In this document: positions 1,369 to 7,652 of the stretch, piece by piece
Layout of the letters: each line of letters opens with the position of its first letter
Position numbering within the stretch: position 1 is the stretch's first letter
IMG/VR virus record: IMGVR_UViG_2565956714_000002
Coordinates: 1-14,094 of that record
DNA from: a virus
Lineage: Duplodnaviria; Heunggongvirae; Uroviricota; Caudoviricetes
DNA length: 14,094 nucleotides
Direction: 5' to 3' (one strand)
Notes under the pieces: generated by a model
The model's database searches: none
The model's input: only the letters and a program-made list of their open reading frames with translations
Told to the model about the DNA's origin: nothing
Position numbers and translations under genes: made by a program

Positions 1369-1444
1369 GCCGATATAGCTCAGTTGGTAGAGCAGCGCAT
1401 TCGTAATGCGAAGGTCGTAGGTTCGACTCCTATTATCGGCACCA
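1369..1444 (+). tRNA. thrW: tRNA-Thr, anticodon CGU, 76 nt including 3' CCA
   Basis: The sequence GCCGATATAGCTCAGTTGGTAGAGCAGCGCATTCGTAATGCGAAGGTCGTAGGTTCGACTCCTATTATCGGCACCA has a 7-bp acceptor stem (GCCGATA/TATCGGC), a D-loop AGCTCAGTTGGTAGAGC, anticodon CGT at 1402-1404 and a T-arm GGTTCGACTCC. It lies 114 nt after proA. Confidence 0.92.
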
Positions 1445-1460
1445 TTTAAATCAATAAGTT
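1400..1460. other. Probable prophage attL region (3' part of thrW plus junction)
   Basis: The integrase stop codon lies only 14 nt past the tRNA CCA end. P22-type integrases use the 3' end of thrW as attB. Exact core boundaries cannot be set without the attR end of the prophage. Confidence 0.35.
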
Positions 1461-2622
1461 ACACATCATTAGTACCTTCCTTATTTTTTGACTGGGACAA
1501 ATTTGGGACCGATGGGTTCAGGATCGAGTCTATTTGCCGTGCGTGTTCGGTAAGGTGATTAGGTGCAAGGTGAGCATATCGACGAACCATTTCGATAGAC
1601 TCCCAGCCTCCCATTTCCTGTAACACTGACAACGGGACTCCGGCTTGAACCAGCCAACTTGCCCAGGTGTGTCTCAAGTCGTGAAATCTGAAATCATCAA
1701 TACCAGCCCGTCTCAGCGCCGCTTTCCAGGCTGTGTTTGCGTCATACCGCATCTTCCTTACTGTTGGCGCTTTCGTTCCGTCTGGTTTGGTACAGCTTTC
1801 CTTGTACACAAATACCCAACGGTGATGATTCCCGATTTGTTTTTTCAATACGCGACATGCAGTATCATTCAGCGCAACGCCAATTGCGCGGTTTGATTTA
1901 CTCTCTTCCGGGTTTATCCATGCCACCCGGCGCTGCATATCTATTTGTTGCCATTCAAGGTTGATGATGTTCGAGCGTCTTAAGCCTGTTGCCAGTGCAA
2001 ATTCAACAACAGACTTTAATGGCTCCGGACATTCATCAATCAGCCTTTGTGCTTCATGGGGCTCCAGCCAGCGGATCCGTTTATTCTTTGGTTGAGGCAC
2101 TTTAATAATTGGTGCCTTATCCAGCATTTTCCATTCACGCTCTGCGGCTCTTAGTAGGGCCTTTATAAATGAAAGATGCGTAGCCTTCGTTGCAACGGAC
2201 GCTGGTTTTGGCGTGTATTCTGGAACAGGTTTCCCTTTTTTTCTGCATGCTTCTGCCCTGAGTTTCCAGTTTTCCTCATGACGCCGGTTCGTCATTTTCT
2301 GCATTGCTGAATAAATTTTTGATTCAGTAATGTCTCTTAGTTGCATTCCTGCGAAATGTTGAAGCCAGAATCCGATCCGGCTTTTGTCATCGTCCAGTGA
2401 TTTTTTATGTGCTTTCTCTTCAAGCCACCTGACACACGCTTCCTCGAACGTTATATCAGGTATTTCACCAAGTTTGCTGACCCGCCATGCTTCAGCCTTT
2501 AGCTTGTCATGGAGTTCTGTCGCCTGCCTTTTGTCCTTTGTTCCAAGAGACTGTTTAAATCTTTTACCGTTCGGCAATGTGAAACTGGCGTACCATATTT
2601 CACCTCTGCGGAAGAGTGACAT
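1459..2622 (-). CDS. int: Phage tyrosine integrase, P22 Int type, 387 aa
   Basis: 387-aa ORF with start preceded by AGAGGAAAG. The N-terminus [50 protein letters not shown] and the C-terminal catalytic region [40 protein letters not shown] (tyrosine recombinase R...HxxR...Y motifs) are recognised from memory as P22-family Int. It is adjacent to thrW, the P22 attachment tRNA. Confidence 0.93.
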
Positions 2623-5060: not shown

Positions 5061-5423
5061 TTAATGACCTGCTGCGCGTAGTTTTCCGTCAGGTTCACCG
5101 GCAAGAGTCAGTAATTGTCCCTGGTCTTCCTGCAGAATAGTCAGGCGACCACCGCGATTGACATACATCGGCGTTTCGGTGGTGTCTTCTTCGGAAATTT
5201 TCCCGCGGTTAGTCGGGCGAACATATGAGAGTTTGTGTTTGATTTTCACACGGTTCTCATCAAATGGTTCGATTTCCAGGTTGAGTGAGACCTTACCTTT
5301 GGTTTTCGTGTTCATCACACCGGAAGCGACTTCACTGAGAACTGCGCCGATTTTGGTTTCAAATACGCCGCCGTCCAGCTCCCCGATAAATGCCTGCACA
5401 TCAGTACTGCGTTCGCTAGCCAT
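5061..5423 (-). CDS. yfdP: Hypothetical early-left protein (YfdP-like), 120 aa
   Basis: Start set at ATG 5423 (MASERSTDVQAFIGELDGG...) with RBS GAGGAA 7 nt upstream. The 197-aa version in the ORF track is an N-terminal read-through into noncoding leader. It is the first gene of the leftward operon. Confidence 0.7.
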   Translation of the reverse strand: MASERSTDVQAFIGELDGGVFETKIGAVLSEVASGVMNTKTKGKVSLNLEIEPFDENRVKIKHKLSYVRPTNRGKISEEDTTETPMYVNRGGRLTILQEDQGQLLTLAGEPDGKLRAAGH

Positions 5424-5471
5424 TTTGCTGTTCCTCATCATATCGACCCTGCAAGGTCGGTTGGTTTCTCC

Positions 5472-5570
5472 ACAAAACAGAGAAGAACACCTGCGGTGGC
5501 AGCCGCCCGGATGGATTGGGTTATGAGCCCGTCGTCCGGTGATGCTCTTCTCTGTTTTGTAAAAAGAGCG
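5472..5570 (-). promoter_or_regulatory. BoxA-like motif followed by a large hairpin in the leftward early leader (candidate antitermination or processing element)
   Basis: On the minus-strand transcript the sequence reads CGCUCUUUUUACAA, then a perfect 15-bp stem (arms at 5472-5486 and 5546-5560) enclosing 59 nt. CGCUCUU is the core of nut and rrn boxA. Function is inferred only. Confidence 0.3.
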
Positions 5571-6024
5571 GTACCAGCCGGAAGCAAGTGTACAAACTGG
5601 TACCGCCAAAGCAGTGGCTGTTGTGGTGGGGTTGTCACTCAGGCGTATGGTCAACCTGACAATCCGGTGTCCTCAACGGGGAAAGAGTAACCCCGCCATA
5701 CTTACCGCCGCGCCATTTCGCGGATTACCACAACGCTGAGAGCACTTAGCCAGTTACGGCACCACACTTTGTCGCGGCTCCATAAATGCCCTCATCGTTG
5801 CACCCTGGTCTCTTCCCAGGCGTCAAACCGAATCGCCACGCTGGTTAGGCGTCTTATCAGCATCATCATTGACTTGCACATTCCGGCTACCTGGTTTGTT
5901 TGCCCGAGCAAGGAGTGGATTGTCCCCTTTAACGTCCCCAGACCGCTAACGACGCATGTGCCATACGCCGTGTTACAACCAAATTTTTTTTGAATCTTGC
6001 CTGCCTCATGTTTCTTTTGGATAC

Positions 6025-6052
6025 ATTATGTATCTCATGGGTACATTGTCAA
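6025..6052 (-). promoter_or_regulatory. Candidate pL-type leftward early promoter
   Basis: Read on the minus strand: TTGACA (6052-6047), 16-nt spacer, CATAAT (6030-6025). It overlaps a 17-bp operator-like dyad. Confidence 0.45.
6029..6045. promoter_or_regulatory. Operator-like 17-bp dyad (OL candidate), TGTATCTCATGGGTACA
   Basis: It shares the pattern TGTAY-N7-GTACA with two sites in the cI-cro intergenic region. It overlaps the candidate pL -10 and spacer, and also the separate perfect palindrome GATACATTATGTATC at 6020-6034. Confidence 0.45.
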
Positions 6053-6056
6053 GTAT

Positions 6057-6078
6057 AAAAAAACCTGCCGAAGCAGGT
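6057..6078 (-). terminator. Intrinsic terminator downstream of the repressor gene
   Basis: On the minus strand: ACCUGC-UUCG-GCAGGU (6-bp stem, UUCG tetraloop) followed by seven U (6063-6057). It begins 14 nt after the cI stop. Confidence 0.55.
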
Positions 6079-6091
6079 TCATATATATTGA

Positions 6092-6766
6092 TTAGGCCTT
6101 TATTGTGTATCTTCTTGGTTTTCCCGAGAAAATCACTGTACCAATTATAGAGCAATTACCGTTAATCTTAATGTAAGGCTCAGGCCAGTTTGGGTTTAAT
6201 GCTTTGAGATAACGCTGTGTTCCATCTTCTATCAATCGCTTGAAGGTGGTTTCGCCTGTATCGTGCATCAATGCAATAACGTCGTCACCGTGGCAGGCAG
6301 GGACTTCGGGATCAACAAAAATCATGTCTCCCGGGCGGTACTCATCAATCATTGAATCACCAATCACCCGCAAGATATAAGTCATTTCGCCACAGGGTAC
6401 AGGGCAGGGATAAGTTTCTGCTGTGCTCAAATCAACCTCAGAATAGCCAACTTCTTTCCATGCTCCGGCCTGTACCCATGATATGACAGGGACTAACGTT
6501 ATTTGTTTGTTAGTGATTGAAACATCAGGTTTTTTTGTGATGTTCGTTGTCTGGTGTTCTTGATCAAGCCATCCGACAGGCAGGTCGAAACATTTTTCGA
6601 TGTGCCGTGCCATGCTGTCACCGATATTTTTAGTAGCGCCATCCCCCATAAACCTGCTGGTTTGGGTTGGCTCGCGATCAATCATGGTGGCAAAGGATGA
6701 ATTTCCGCCAACACCATCTCTCAGTTTTCTGGCGTTAGACCGCCGGATGTCATGGATTGTTTTCAT
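6092..6766 (-). CDS. cI: CI-type prophage repressor with N-terminal HTH and C-terminal S24 (LexA-like) autopeptidase domain, 224 aa
   Basis: The C-terminal region VIGDSMIDEYRPGDMIFVDPEV ... GETTFKRL aligns by eye with lambda CI and LexA (Ser in GDSM, Lys in FKRL). A candidate Ala-Gly cleavage site lies in WVQAGAWK. It is divergent from the cro-like gene. There is no Shine-Dalgarno before the ATG at 6766, which suggests a leaderless mRNA. Confidence 0.9.
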   Translation of the reverse strand: MKTIHDIRRSNARKLRDGVGGNSSFATMIDREPTQTSRFMGDGATKNIGDSMARHIEKCFDLPVGWLDQEHQTTNITKKPDVSITNKQITLVPVISWVQAGAWKEVGYSEVDLSTAETYPCPVPCGEMTYILRVIGDSMIDEYRPGDMIFVDPEVPACHGDDVIALMHDTGETTFKRLIEDGTQRYLKALNPNWPEPYIKINGNCSIIGTVIFSGKPRRYTIKA

Positions 6767-6783
6767 AACGAAATTAAAACCTT

Positions 6784-6800
6784 TGTACCGATAAGGTACA
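6784..6800. promoter_or_regulatory. Operator-like 17-bp palindrome TGTACCGATAAGGTACA (OR site)
   Basis: Perfect inverted arms TGTACC/GGTACA with a 5-bp spacer, in the cI-cro intergenic region, overlapping the predicted pRM -35 position. Confidence 0.5.
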
Positions 6801-6806
6801 AGTATC

Positions 6807-6834
6807 TTGAAGGTTCATTTCAATCATGTAATAT
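6807..6834 (+). promoter_or_regulatory. Candidate pR-type rightward early promoter
   Basis: TTGAAG (6807-6812), 16-nt spacer, TAATAT (6829-6834), reading into the cro RBS GGAGG at 6842-6846. Confidence 0.45.
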
Positions 6835-6850
6835 GTATACCGGAGGTACA
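6834..6850. promoter_or_regulatory. Operator-like 17-bp site TGTATACCGGAGGTACA (OR site)
   Basis: Matches the TGTAY-N7-GTACA pattern. It overlaps the pR -10 and start region and the cro RBS. Confidence 0.45.
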
Positions 6851-6856
6851 TATTGT

Positions 6857-7057
6857 ATGAAAGCGTATTGGGACTCTTTAACCAAAGAACAGCAGGGCGA
6901 GTTGGCCGGAAAAGTTGGCTCAACACCTGGCTACTTACGGCTGGTTTTCAATGGTTATAAAAAAGCCAGTTTTGTGCTGGCTAAAAAACTTGAGCAATGC
7001 ACGTCAGGTGCAATTACGAAATCTGACTTAAGACCGGATATCTATCCGAAAGATTAA
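6857..7057 (+). CDS. cro: Cro-like / YdaS-family small DNA-binding regulator, 66 aa
   Basis: Start at ATG 6857 with GGAGG 10 nt upstream. The protein MKAYWDSLTKEQQGELAGKVGSTPGYLRLVFNGYKKASFVLAKKLEQCTSGAITKSDLRPDIYPKD has an HTH and the C-terminal DLRPDIYP motif typical of YdaS/Cro-like proteins. The 101-aa version in the ORF track starts inside the operator region and lacks an RBS. Confidence 0.8.
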   Translation: MKAYWDSLTKEQQGELAGKVGSTPGYLRLVFNGYKKASFVLAKKLEQCTSGAITKSDLRPDIYPKD

Positions 7058-7088: not shown

Positions 7089-7652
7089 ATGAGGCTAACC
7101 GTGGGTAAGCATCACTGGAAAGTAGAAAAACAGCCTGAGTGGTACGTGAAAGCTGTCAGAAAAACGATCGCGGCGTTGCCGGGGGGTTACGCTGAAGCTG
7201 CTGAGTGGCTGGATGTAACAGAGAACGCTTTATTCAACCGCCTTCGTGCAGATGGCGATCAGATTTTCCCGCTGGGATGGGCAATGATTTTACAGCGCGC
7301 GGCTGGCACTCACTACATTGCGGATGCTGTCGCACAGTCTGCTGGTGGGGTGTTTGTATCGCTTCCTGAAATTGAGGAAGTAGAGAACGCCGATATAAAC
7401 CAGCGCCTGCTGGAAGTCATCGAACAGATCGGGAGTTACTCAAAGCAGATTCGTTCGGCAATTGAAGATGGGGTAGTGGAGCCACACGAGCAGACAGCAA
7501 TTAATGATGAGTTGTATCTGTCAATTTCGAAGCTCCAGGAGCATGCAGCACTGGTCTACAAAATCTTTTGCGCTCCAGAAAAGAGTGACGCCCGCGAGTG
7601 TGCAGCTCCGGGCGTCGTGGCGTTTTGTGTCTGTGGAGAAACTAACGCATGA
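7089..7652 (+). CDS. CII-like regulatory protein (YdaT / phage CII family), 187 aa
   Basis: It follows cro as ydaT follows ydaS in Rac. An HTH-like segment is present (GGYAEAAEWLDVTENALFNRL). An alternative GTG start at 7101 has a better RBS (GAGG). The family assignment is from memory and is moderate. Confidence 0.55.
   Translation: MRLTVGKHHWKVEKQPEWYVKAVRKTIAALPGGYAEAAEWLDVTENALFNRLRADGDQIFPLGWAMILQRAAGTHYIADAVAQSAGGVFVSLPEIEEVENADINQRLLEVIEQIGSYSKQIRSAIEDGVVEPHEQTAINDELYLSISKLQEHAALVYKIFCAPEKSDARECAAPGVVAFCVCGETNA

Follow-up and report, generated by a model that had tools for sequence, protein, structure and literature searches.

Five candidate operators and a leaderless repressor mRNA in the ymfK/ymfT immunity region of an e14/SfV-type prophage

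The window analysed here, a stretch of viral DNA of 14,094 nucleotides taken at its full length, carries a repressor gene and a cro-like gene that diverge from a 90-bp intergenic region, and in and around them the original prediction had placed three dyads of the pattern TGTAY-N7-GTACA. Are these dyads the operators of a lambda-like switch? Gene identities and conservation across relatives both back the predicted OR/OL region, with 17-bp dyads that overlap pR, pRM and pL (Table 1). We consider it highly probable that this is the lysis/lysogeny switch of an e14/SfV-type lambdoid prophage, in which YmfK would act on five 17-bp sites and be translated from a leaderless mRNA. A lambda-like switch of this kind is already known; the first reading was correct but ordinary, and no new principle is involved.

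The repressor ORF matches Pfam Peptidase_S24 (E 1.5e-26) and PHROG_4, transcriptional repressor (E 7.5e-49), and the gene is 100% identical in nucleotide sequence to E. coli loci annotated ymfK. The roles predicted for the protein are those of an N-terminal helical DNA-binding domain (residues about 1-70) followed by a C-terminal self-cleaving S24 domain. The AlphaFold model has helices at 4-19, 22-28, 33-40 and 50-59 and then a beta domain, with four to five helices counted in residues 4-68 (pLDDT 82-90). No Pfam helix-turn-helix model scored above threshold in the N-terminal domain, which is similar to that of SPC32H Rep (5D50; PDB profile E 8e-9), while for the C-terminal domain lambda cI is the nearest match (PDB profile E 1e-17; Foldseek top match 3BDN). 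The protein has conserved Ala-Gly (100-101), Ser138 and Lys176 motifs, presumed to be catalytic. The Cro-like ORF matches Pfam YdaS_toxin (E 1.5e-5) and HTH_3 (E 6.5e-3), both under the curated cut-offs, and PHROG_35, transcriptional repressor (E 3e-15); it is annotated as cro in SfV and cdtI.

Nucleotide identity assigns the region to the e14/SfV/cdtI/Stx2c/Ayreon prophage group, as its immunity region with ymfK (cI-like) and ymfT (Cro-like). Several E. coli chromosomes annotated ymfK/ymfT match it at 100% identity over 1201 bp, and SfV, SfIV, cdtI, Stx2c phages, Ayreon and 2H10 at 96-99%. With e14 included, these phages and the Stx2c-converting phages share the 1.2-kb region at 96-100% nucleotide identity and in the same gene order. 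Relative to the window, the e14/SfV group has single-base differences only, most of them in operator spacers or raising dyad symmetry. Similarity to the window stops just left of OL2, near 6009, in SfV and e14, but goes on past about 6009 in 2H10, Ayreon, cdtI and the Stx2c phages. Of 5426 complete E. coli genomes, 1926 (about one third) carry this immunity type at 95-100% identity. Within it the N-terminal 88 amino acids of the repressor are 99-100% identical, and because the repressor, Cro and the intergenic operators are all near-identical, homoimmunity would be expected. Parts of the layout had been annotated before: the "putative operator region" of the SfV GenBank record (2002) is exactly window 6783-6851, the Ayreon record (MF807953) labels as 'promoter' the same 28 bp as pL, and the repressor terminator is annotated as such in both SfV and Ayreon, where its position also corresponds. 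A search of Rfam gave no match in 6000-6860.

Table 1. Genes, candidate promoters and operators, and terminator of the immunity region (positions in the window)
Feature	Position	Strand	Description
Repressor gene ymfK / cI of e14-SfV immunity type	6092..6766	-	224 aa; Peptidase_S24
Cro-like gene ymfT/croE	6857..7057	+	66 aa; YdaS/HTH_3-type helix-turn-helix
CII-like activator gene ymfL (context)	7089..7652	+	Phage_CP76 E 8.5e-15; PHROG_101 CII-like activator E 5e-73
Maintenance promoter (pRM-like)	6773..6801	-	-35 TTGTAC (6801..6796), 17-bp spacer, -10 TTTAAT (6778..6773)
Early rightward promoter (pR-like)	6807..6834	+	-35 TTGAAG (6807-6812), 16-bp spacer, -10 TAATAT (6829-6834)
Early leftward promoter (pL-like)	6025..6052	-	TTGACA-16-CATAAT
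Intrinsic terminator of repressor gene	6061..6080	-	8-bp stem then T run; directly upstream of pL
OR3-like operator, candidate	6784..6800	.	TGTACCGATAAGGTACA, perfect 6-5-6 dyad
OR2-like operator, candidate	6801..6817	.	AGTATCTTGAAGGTTCA, 9/12 arm matches; degenerate
OR1-like operator, candidate	6834..6850	.	TGTATACCGGAGGTACA
OL1 operator, candidate	6029..6045	.	TGTATCTCATGGGTACA; in pL spacer, overlaps pL -10
OL2 operator, candidate	6009..6025	.	TGTTTCTTTTGGATACA, 9/12 arm matches; weaker than OL1

All three predicted dyads (OR3, OR1 and OL1 in Table 1) lie where they had been placed, and TGTAY-N7-GTACA has no further occurrence in the window. Dinucleotide-preserving shuffles yielded a mean of 0.01 matches per window and none of 200 reached the observed count, which rules out a chance origin. 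When the window was scored with a position weight matrix (PWM), the top five matches were exactly the five proposed operator sites, the fourth being OL2 (score 12.7; 0.1 expected per shuffled window) and the fifth OR2 (score 7.0; 0.5 such expected per shuffled 14 kb). The consensus of the five 17-bp candidate sites is TGTACC-N5-GGTACA.

The OR3-like site is centred at -26 of the repressor start, where it fills the pRM spacer and overlaps the pRM -35. Directly abutting it, with 17 bp (about 1.6 helical turns) between the two centres, the OR2-like site lies over the pR -35, its own centre being at -43 relative to the start of the repressor transcript. The OR1-like site takes in the last base of the pR -10 and extends over both the predicted pR start and the Shine-Dalgarno of cro, GGAGG (6843-6847); its counterpart in K-12 e14 is fully symmetric, TGTACACCGGAGGTACA (TGTACA...). 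On the left, OL2 lies 20 bp from OL1, centre to centre, and covers the predicted pL start. The K-12 and SfV version of OL2 is TGTTTCTCTTGGGTACA, and the K-12 right arm reads GGTACA, as it does in most relatives, where the window has GATACA.

To see the sites across the family, we compared 33 non-redundant relatives drawn from Enterobacterales, Halomonadaceae and Salinivibrio, with repressor identity from 100% down to 42%, in a conservation alignment anchored on OR3. TGTACC-N5-GGTACA recurs in these relatives at matching positions: counted from the repressor ATG, the sites hold to -26, -43 and -76, and beyond the stop codon they lie at about 55 bp (and +20). The OR sites at -26, -43 and -76 are conserved in 32-34 of 34 loci: OR3 at -26..-30 in all 34, never with fewer than 10 of 12 arm matches, OR1 at -76..-80 in all 34, and OR2 at -43..-47 in 32. 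OL1, with a variable spacer, is kept at about 55 bp beyond the repressor stop in 30 of the 34. Arm conservation is 0.84-0.97 in OR3 and OR1 (0.94 and 0.97 for the OR3 arms, against 0.48 for the spacer between them; 0.96 for the OR1 right arm) and 0.75-0.81 in OR2, compared to 0.44-0.50 in the OR3 spacer and unconstrained flanks. This comparison across relatives shows selection on the three sites named at the outset. Since the Cro-like protein and the repressor N-terminal domain both co-vary with the motif, it is blind to which of the two proteins selects them.

The original count of only two OR sites has to be revised, as the degenerate third site, 6801-6817, is also conserved. It is improbable that the two perfect or near-perfect dyads are the only OR operators, with 6801-6817 conserved solely for the -35 elements of pR and pRM. 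Such an explanation would suit the nine of 12 arm matches and marginal PWM score of this site in the window, as well as the presence of CTTG (pR -35) and ACAAG (pRM -35, other strand) within the conserved block. However, the right arm GGTTCA(T) (6812-6817) is conserved although it falls within the pR spacer, a part of promoters with little constraint on sequence; the same arm is an exact GGTACA, the full consensus, in the most distant relatives (L022, L027 and L031-L037) and in LESphi3 (TGTACCGTCAAGGTTCT on the other strand); and the position of the site is fixed in nearly all loci. We retain 6801-6817 as a candidate OR2, weak in the window, part of whose conservation could stem from the two -35 elements that it overlaps.

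The promoter of the repressor gene was predicted to give a leaderless transcript, and this was borne out. The minus-strand TTTAAT precedes the ATG at 6766 by 6 nt, and no Shine-Dalgarno is present at a usable distance. Differential RNA-seq in MG1655 mapped a class I transcription start of e14 ymfK on the A of the ATG, for a leader of 0 nt (Romero et al. 2014, PMC4681348, Table S3), and over the stretch that runs from this ATG to the -10 inclusive, K-12 and the window have the same sequence. The repressor mRNA thus begins with its own AUG, as published for the identical promoter. In nearly all relatives a -10-like NNTAAT lies 6-7 nt from the repressor ATG, and the nucleotides between are not conserved (0.44). 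The supplement of PMC4681348 held no data on the ymfT and ymfJ transcription starts. The pR candidate is present as proposed, although with eight of 12 matches it falls under the promoter-scan threshold; conservation in relatives of the -35 CTTG and of a -10 reading TAATAT, CATAAT or TATAAT supports it, and the start would lie near 6841. The pL candidate has 11 of 12 consensus matches and is likewise conserved in relatives, its start being predicted near 6018.

Could the dyads be RNA or DNA hairpins, such as terminators or attenuators, rather than protein sites? A terminator scan does flag 6801..6783 on the minus strand, with a 7-bp stem followed by AGGTTTTAAT. But the stem of the OR3 dyad has only three G-C pairs, its 'T run' is the pRM -10, and it lies outside the repressor mRNA, the published start of which is downstream. 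OR1 and OL1 carry the same dyad without a T tract. Across relatives the arm sequence TGTACC/GGTACA is constant and the loop varies, with no compensatory changes, which is the signature of protein recognition and not of base pairing. Conservation of arm sequence rather than of pairing, together with a mapped start downstream of the stem, led us to reject the hairpin reading of OR3, and we consider hairpins extremely unlikely for the dyads as a whole.

There is practically no chance that the sites are host LexA (SOS) boxes, for which the E. coli consensus is TACTGTATATATATACAGTA: they are without its CTG-N10-CAG core and read TGTACC-N5-GGTACA. PGAP names the repressor 'LexA family protein', and e14 is SOS-inducible according to quoted literature, yet the protein resembles LexA in its S24 domain only, and even there lambda cI is the nearer match (E 1e-17 versus 1e-7 for LexA); its N-terminal domain, instead of a LexA winged helix, is a bundle of helices with homology to the N-terminal domains of SPC32H Rep and phage CI. 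Box sequence and N-terminal homology thus both disagree with membership of the LexA regulon. The operator motif instead tracks the phage repressor N-terminal domain across hosts, which also argues against LexA boxes. In phage BP-4795, the cI of which has 41% N-terminal identity and SQLTQ in helix 3, the intergenic sequences are unrelated.

A perfect 7-1-7 palindrome, GATACATTATGTATC (6020-6034; arms GATACAT and ATGTATC around a central T), had been proposed as a separate site for a second regulator. The palindrome is real, and is conserved as GGTACATTATGTACC in most relatives. Its arms, however, are the consensus right arm of OL2 and left arm of OL1, 3 bp apart, so that no second regulator is needed; any two adjacent palindromic operators yield such an everted repeat, and the OR3/OR2 junction, GGTACA/AGTATC, is likewise everted with 0 bp between. 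At its centre is the pL -10 CATAAT, which alone explains the conservation of ATTATG, and OR has no equivalent 7-1-7 element. A dedicated site for Cro or a host factor is therefore very improbable, and we read the palindrome as the OL2/OL1 junction.

With the five-site reading preferred throughout, the switch would work as follows. YmfK, a two-domain cI-like repressor with SOS-cleavable features, would most likely bind as a dimer to five 17-bp sites, three between the divergent repressor and cro genes and two past the repressor terminator. The cro-proximal site, at the pR -10 edge, start and cro ribosome site, together with the middle site over the pR -35, would shut pR, and pL would be shut when both left sites are occupied. 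Negative autoregulation would come from the perfect dyad at -26, which falls within the core of the repressor promoter. Positive autoregulation from the middle site is plausible because its position, -43, matches the activating position of lambda cI at OR2 (-42). The Cro-like YmfT probably acts on the same sites. We infer the assignment of proteins to sites, the order of affinities, activation from -43, cooperativity and OL-OR looping, which would span about 755 bp. The hierarchy of occupancy is not readable from the sequence, because the site nearest to consensus occupies the promoter of the repressor itself, opposite to the preference of lambda cI. In the searchable literature, which left the SfV-genome and e14-analysis papers outside, we found no binding experiment (EMSA, footprint or ChIP) for YmfK or YmfT on these sites, and in the searchable literature no operator mapping for YmfK, YmfT or CroE.

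Similar to the arrangement in lambda, the repressor and cro genes are divergent, three 17-bp pseudo-symmetric operators at OR lie over two back-to-back promoters, further operators lie over pL beyond the repressor gene, and the maintenance mRNA is leaderless. The repressor of both has two domains, and the C-terminal domain of lambda cI is the closest solved relative. The middle operator of lambda is centred at -42 of the maintenance promoter, and the two transcription starts are about 83 bp apart in lambda and about 75 bp apart in the window. The differences are that the operators have no sequence relationship to those of lambda, that the kinship of the repressor N-terminal domains is only distant, that the best dyad falls on the maintenance promoter and not on pR, that two OL sites instead of three are evident, and that the CII-like gene is of the 186/CP76 family. 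No N or cIII has been reported in SfV and SfIV (PMC3851460). Operators at OR are 17 and 33 bp apart, centre to centre, as against about 23-24 bp in lambda, and because spacings of 17, 33 and 20 bp are unlike those of lambda, the rules of cooperativity may differ. The 17-bp spacing of OR3 and OR2 is awkward for lambda-style cooperativity between adjacent sites. Given that the best-conserved symmetric site, at -26, directly abuts the weak site at -43, occupancy of the two could be mutually exclusive and create an unusually tight autoregulatory loop. We offer only tentatively, as a possible but on balance doubtful proposal, that the switch logic differs from that of lambda in this exclusion and loop and, separately, that one operator specificity has stayed fixed across phages.

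Two outside systems can be set beside the window. The N-terminal domain of SPC32H Rep (PDB 5D50), from a Salmonella phage, is homologous to that of the window repressor (profile E 8.4e-9 over residues 1-89; single-sequence E 4.7e-4), with the recognition helix SQNLVNRW where the window has PTQTSRFM. SPC32H Rep binds DNA in tetrameric form, and an antirepressor inactivates it (PMC9638917); by contrast, the window repressor keeps an S24 self-cleavage domain. Closer are the CI proteins of the Pseudomonas phage LESphi3 and of the Vibrio phage Va_PF430-3_p42, with N-terminal domains 55% identical to that of the window, a shared TQxSR helix 3 and homologous Cro proteins (32-42% identity). Both phages, from different hosts, have three TGTAC..GTACA sites in the same layout and a -10 located 6 nt from the repressor ATG, so that motif, layout and -10-to-ATG spacing are as in the window. 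Their C-terminal S24 domains are too diverged for BLASTP alignment, and LESphi3 carries an extra Ant gene. The BLASTP null had suggested that LESphi3 CI had exchanged its C-terminus for a non-S24, antirepressor-responsive domain, a candidate we rejected since Pfam finds S24 there.

By these comparisons, the TGTACC-N5-GGTACA specificity, the TQxSR helix, the Cro partner and the leaderless promoter appear fixed across phages of Enterobacterales, Halomonadaceae, Vibrio and Pseudomonas. This would be unexpected, as immunity regions usually diversify fast. The specificity would be the same even where the C-terminal domain has diverged beyond BLASTP recognition.

The practical product is an explicit five-site operator map with its consensus. 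This immunity type is common to phages that convert to Shiga toxin 2c, cytolethal distending toxin or a new Shigella serotype. As it is also present in about a third of complete E. coli genomes, the operators matter for medically relevant prophages: it is they that determine superinfection immunity and the SOS induction of these prophages and of the e14 division inhibitor.

A search of the 14,094-base window for TGTAY-N7-GTACA returned three dyads and none elsewhere, exactly where the original prediction had placed 17-bp operators (OL1, OR3 and OR1). In dinucleotide-preserving shuffled windows, the mean was 0.01 matches and the observed count was reached in 0 of 200, excluding chance. Two weaker candidates adjoin these dyads. 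OL2 has a PWM score of 12.7, with 0.1 such hits expected per window, and its counterpart in K-12 and SfV is TGTTTCTCTTGGGTACA. OR2, with 9 of 12 arm positions matched, ranks fifth among all PWM hits of the window; shuffled sequence of 14 kb is expected to give 0.5 hits of this level, so that the site would be marginal if taken alone. It is supported, however, by its constant position in relatives and by its right arm. That arm, placed in the pR spacer, a segment little constrained by promoter function, is exactly GGTACA in the most distant relatives (loci L022, L027 and L031-L037). Thus the earlier count of only two OR sites has to be raised to three.

Putative operators, promoters and genes of the immunity region (negative positions are relative to the repressor start)
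Feature	Position	Strand	Sequence or elements	Remarks
OL2 candidate site	6009-6025		TGTTTCTTTTGGATACA	covers predicted pL start
OL1 dyad	6029-6045		TGTATCTCATGGGTACA	in pL spacer, touches pL -10
pL	6052 to 6025	minus	TTGACA-16-CATAAT	11/12 consensus matches
Repressor gene (ymfK/cI)	6092-6766	minus		224 aa; Peptidase_S24 domain, E 1.5e-26
pRM	-10 at -12 to -7; -35 at -35 to -30	minus	TTTAAT; weak -35 TTGTAC	start 6766
OR3 dyad, perfect	6784-6800		TGTACCGATAAGGTACA	-34 to -18, centre -26
OR2 candidate site	6801-6817		AGTATCTTGAAGGTTCA	-51 to -35, centre -43
pR	-35 6807-6812; -10 6829-6834	plus	TTGAAG-16-TAATAT	predicted start ~6841
OR1 dyad	6834-6850		TGTATACCGGAGGTACA	-84 to -68
Cro-like gene (ymfT)	6857-7057	divergent from repressor		66 aa, YdaS/HTH_3-type Cro

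To place these sites in a comparative frame, we used a species scan (a single genome for each species, queried with aligned full-length homologues) that returned 79 loci, and analysed the 34 with full-length protein matches (L004-L037; 100% down to 42% identity), which belong to Enterobacterales, Halomonadaceae and Salinivibrio. Most loci show the strict pattern again at these three positions, and the five central bases vary by locus. When the twelve arm positions alone were scored against TGTACC/GGTACA, sites centred -26 to -30 and -76 to -80 from the repressor ATG were present in 34/34 loci, a site at -43 to -47 in 32, a site about 55 bp beyond the repressor stop codon in 30, and another, exactly 20 bp beyond that one, in about 20. 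When 33 non-redundant sequences were stacked with the -26 site as anchor, mean majority-base frequencies were 0.94 and 0.97 for the two arms of that site, 0.84 and 0.96 for those of the -76 site, and 0.75 and 0.81 for those of the -43 site; the spacer of the -26 site gave 0.48, the six bases from the -10 to the ATG 0.44, and 6779-6783 0.50. No compensatory changes in the dyad arms occur across the stack; the arm sequence itself is retained, as expected for protein recognition but not for a role as an RNA or DNA hairpin. In four Halomonadaceae loci (L031-L033 and L037), the first two OR sites share one base, their centres being 16 bp apart instead of 17, and the 125 bp after the repressor stop codon yielded no OL-type site. 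Many relatives carry a GC-rich conserved block, GGCGGCTACTTCGTGGGCGTCCTGCCTG, directly downstream of OL2, which is absent from the window.

A 7-1-7 palindrome at 6020-6034, previously proposed to be a separate site for a second regulator, does exist, but it is made up of the OL2 right arm and the OL1 left arm with 3 bp between them, and the pL -10 CATAAT spans its centre. Neighbouring palindromic operators necessarily yield such an everted repeat, as does the OR3/OR2 junction (GGTACA|AGTATC), and therefore no second regulator is required. On the other side of the region, a 14-nt inverted repeat (6824-6837/6847-6860, TCATGTAATATGTA/TACATATTGTATGA, 86% complementary) widens the symmetry of OR1 and links the pR -10 with the region of the cro start codon, and close relatives keep part of it (TAATATGTAC...GTACATATTA). 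The site recognised at OR1 may be longer than 17 bp, or else the outward repeat is coincidental.

Both predicted early promoters are present. The pR candidate, with 8/12 matches, is under the scan threshold, and its support is supplied by conservation. OR2 overlies the pR -35, and OR1 overlies the end of the pR -10, the predicted pR start and the cro Shine-Dalgarno GGAGG (6843-6847). About 370 nt of the predicted pL transcript (5655-6024, minus strand) lacks a convincing ORF; the first long minus-strand ORF after pL, 5061-5654, has internal ATGs.

Among solved structures, the repressor C-terminal domain is nearest to lambda cI (profile E 1e-17 versus 1e-7 for LexA), and its top Foldseek match is 3BDN. 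The first 70 residues are modelled as a helical bundle (helices 4-19, 22-28, 33-40 and 50-59; pLDDT 82-90), and this N-terminal domain is homologous to that of Salmonella phage SPC32H Rep (PDB 5D50). Ala100-Gly101, Ser138 and Lys176 are conserved and would serve self-cleavage. The gene next after cro is CII-like. Gene identities, operator conservation and promoter overlap together support the lambda-like OR/OL switch first suggested. In the scheme we infer for which protein binds which site, and in what order, repressor dimers at OR1 and OR2 most likely block pR and dimers at OL1 and OL2 most likely block pL. The maintenance promoter may be stimulated from -43, where a dimer would be placed much as lambda cI is at OR2, the centre of which is at -42 of pRM; a dimer at -26 most likely represses this promoter. 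RecA-stimulated self-cleavage of the repressor would lift repression, which fits the description of e14, the K-12 prophage, as SOS-inducible. Unlike lambda, the window has centre-to-centre spacings of 17, 33 and 20 bp, two OL sites instead of three, and its best dyad on the repressor's own promoter. By sequence, then, operator hierarchy and spacing appear to differ from lambda, among the least ordinary points of this region.

On the minus strand, the hexamer TTTAAT is found 6 nt before the repressor ATG, and examination of the sequence ahead of this start codon revealed no usable Shine-Dalgarno. The e14 ymfK is among five leaderless mRNAs of E. coli MG1655, with a class I transcription start at the first base of the gene and a leader length of 0 (Romero et al. 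2014, PMC4681348, Fig. 2, Table S3). Since K-12 and the window are identical from the ATG through the -10 hexamer, the leaderless repressor mRNA, proposed earlier from sequence, is an experimental fact for this promoter. Leaderless repressor mRNAs are probably a family-wide trait, because Pseudomonas phage LESphi3 and Vibrio phage Va_PF430-3_p42, like the window, keep a -10 about 6 nt from the repressor ATG.

Several E. coli chromosomes, on which the two genes carry the names ymfK and ymfT, match the 1.2 kb around the switch at 100% identity; this stretch occurs at ≥95% identity in 1926/5426 complete E. coli genomes and is 96-99% identical in phages 2H10, Ayreon, cdtI, twelve Stx2c-converting phages, SfV and SfIV. 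The region is therefore of the e14/SfV immunity type. With the cI and cro start codons as reference points, the 'putative operator region' of SfV record U82619 (26377-26445) equals window 6783-6851, exactly the outer edges of the two strong OR dyads. In the Ayreon record, an annotated promoter maps to 6025-6052 (pL) and a terminator to ~6050-6090 (repressor terminator). A literature search outside the SfV and e14 genome papers found no mapping of the sites bound by YmfK or YmfT. Similarity to SfV, SfIV and e14 begins at ~6009, just left of OL2, at a mosaic boundary (~6000-6010) beyond which 2H10, Ayreon, cdtI and the Stx2c phages are still similar; the outer edge of OL2 thus seems to be the limit of the immunity module.

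Elsewhere in the window, Rfam matches to isrK (8009-8085, plus strand, 63 bits) and C4 antisense RNA (8110-8197, plus strand, 82 bits) both lie inside ORF 7649-8485, a Phage_ASH family member equivalent to SfV orf37, annotated 'immunity region'. They resemble a c4 antisense element of the P1/P7 kind, and such an element could give this prophage a second layer of control, over immunity or an antirepressor. A tRNA-Thr (CGT) gene (1369-1444, plus strand) adjoins a 387-aa ORF (1459-2622, minus strand), a candidate integrase by position, and this is probably the prophage attachment site.

Across more distant phages, the operator motif follows the repressor N-terminal domain. In LESphi3 and Va_PF430-3_p42, this domain is 55% identical to that of the window, with helix-3 motif TQxSR, and both phages have three TGTAC..GTACA sites in the same layout (1400-1500 of their loci, L083 and L084), a homologous Cro (32-42% identity) and a cro Shine-Dalgarno embedded in the cro-proximal operator. 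Their repressor C-terminal domains are still S24, and that of LESphi3 is not alignable to the window's by BLASTP. Unlike these, phage BP-4795 cI (41% N-terminal identity) has helix 3 SQLTQ and unrelated intergenic repeats, and SPC32H Rep also differs in helix 3. In lambdoid phages, repressor and Cro share operators; here Cro varies together with the N-terminal domain, and so the comparison does not reveal which of the two proteins selects the sites. The switch belongs to an immunity region that is very common and already known: annotation of the operator region dates from 2002 and publication of the leaderless mRNA from 2014. To this, the analysis adds an explicit, comparatively supported map of five putative operators and a consensus. 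Also among its least ordinary points, a single operator specificity appears to have been retained across phages of several gammaproteobacterial families.
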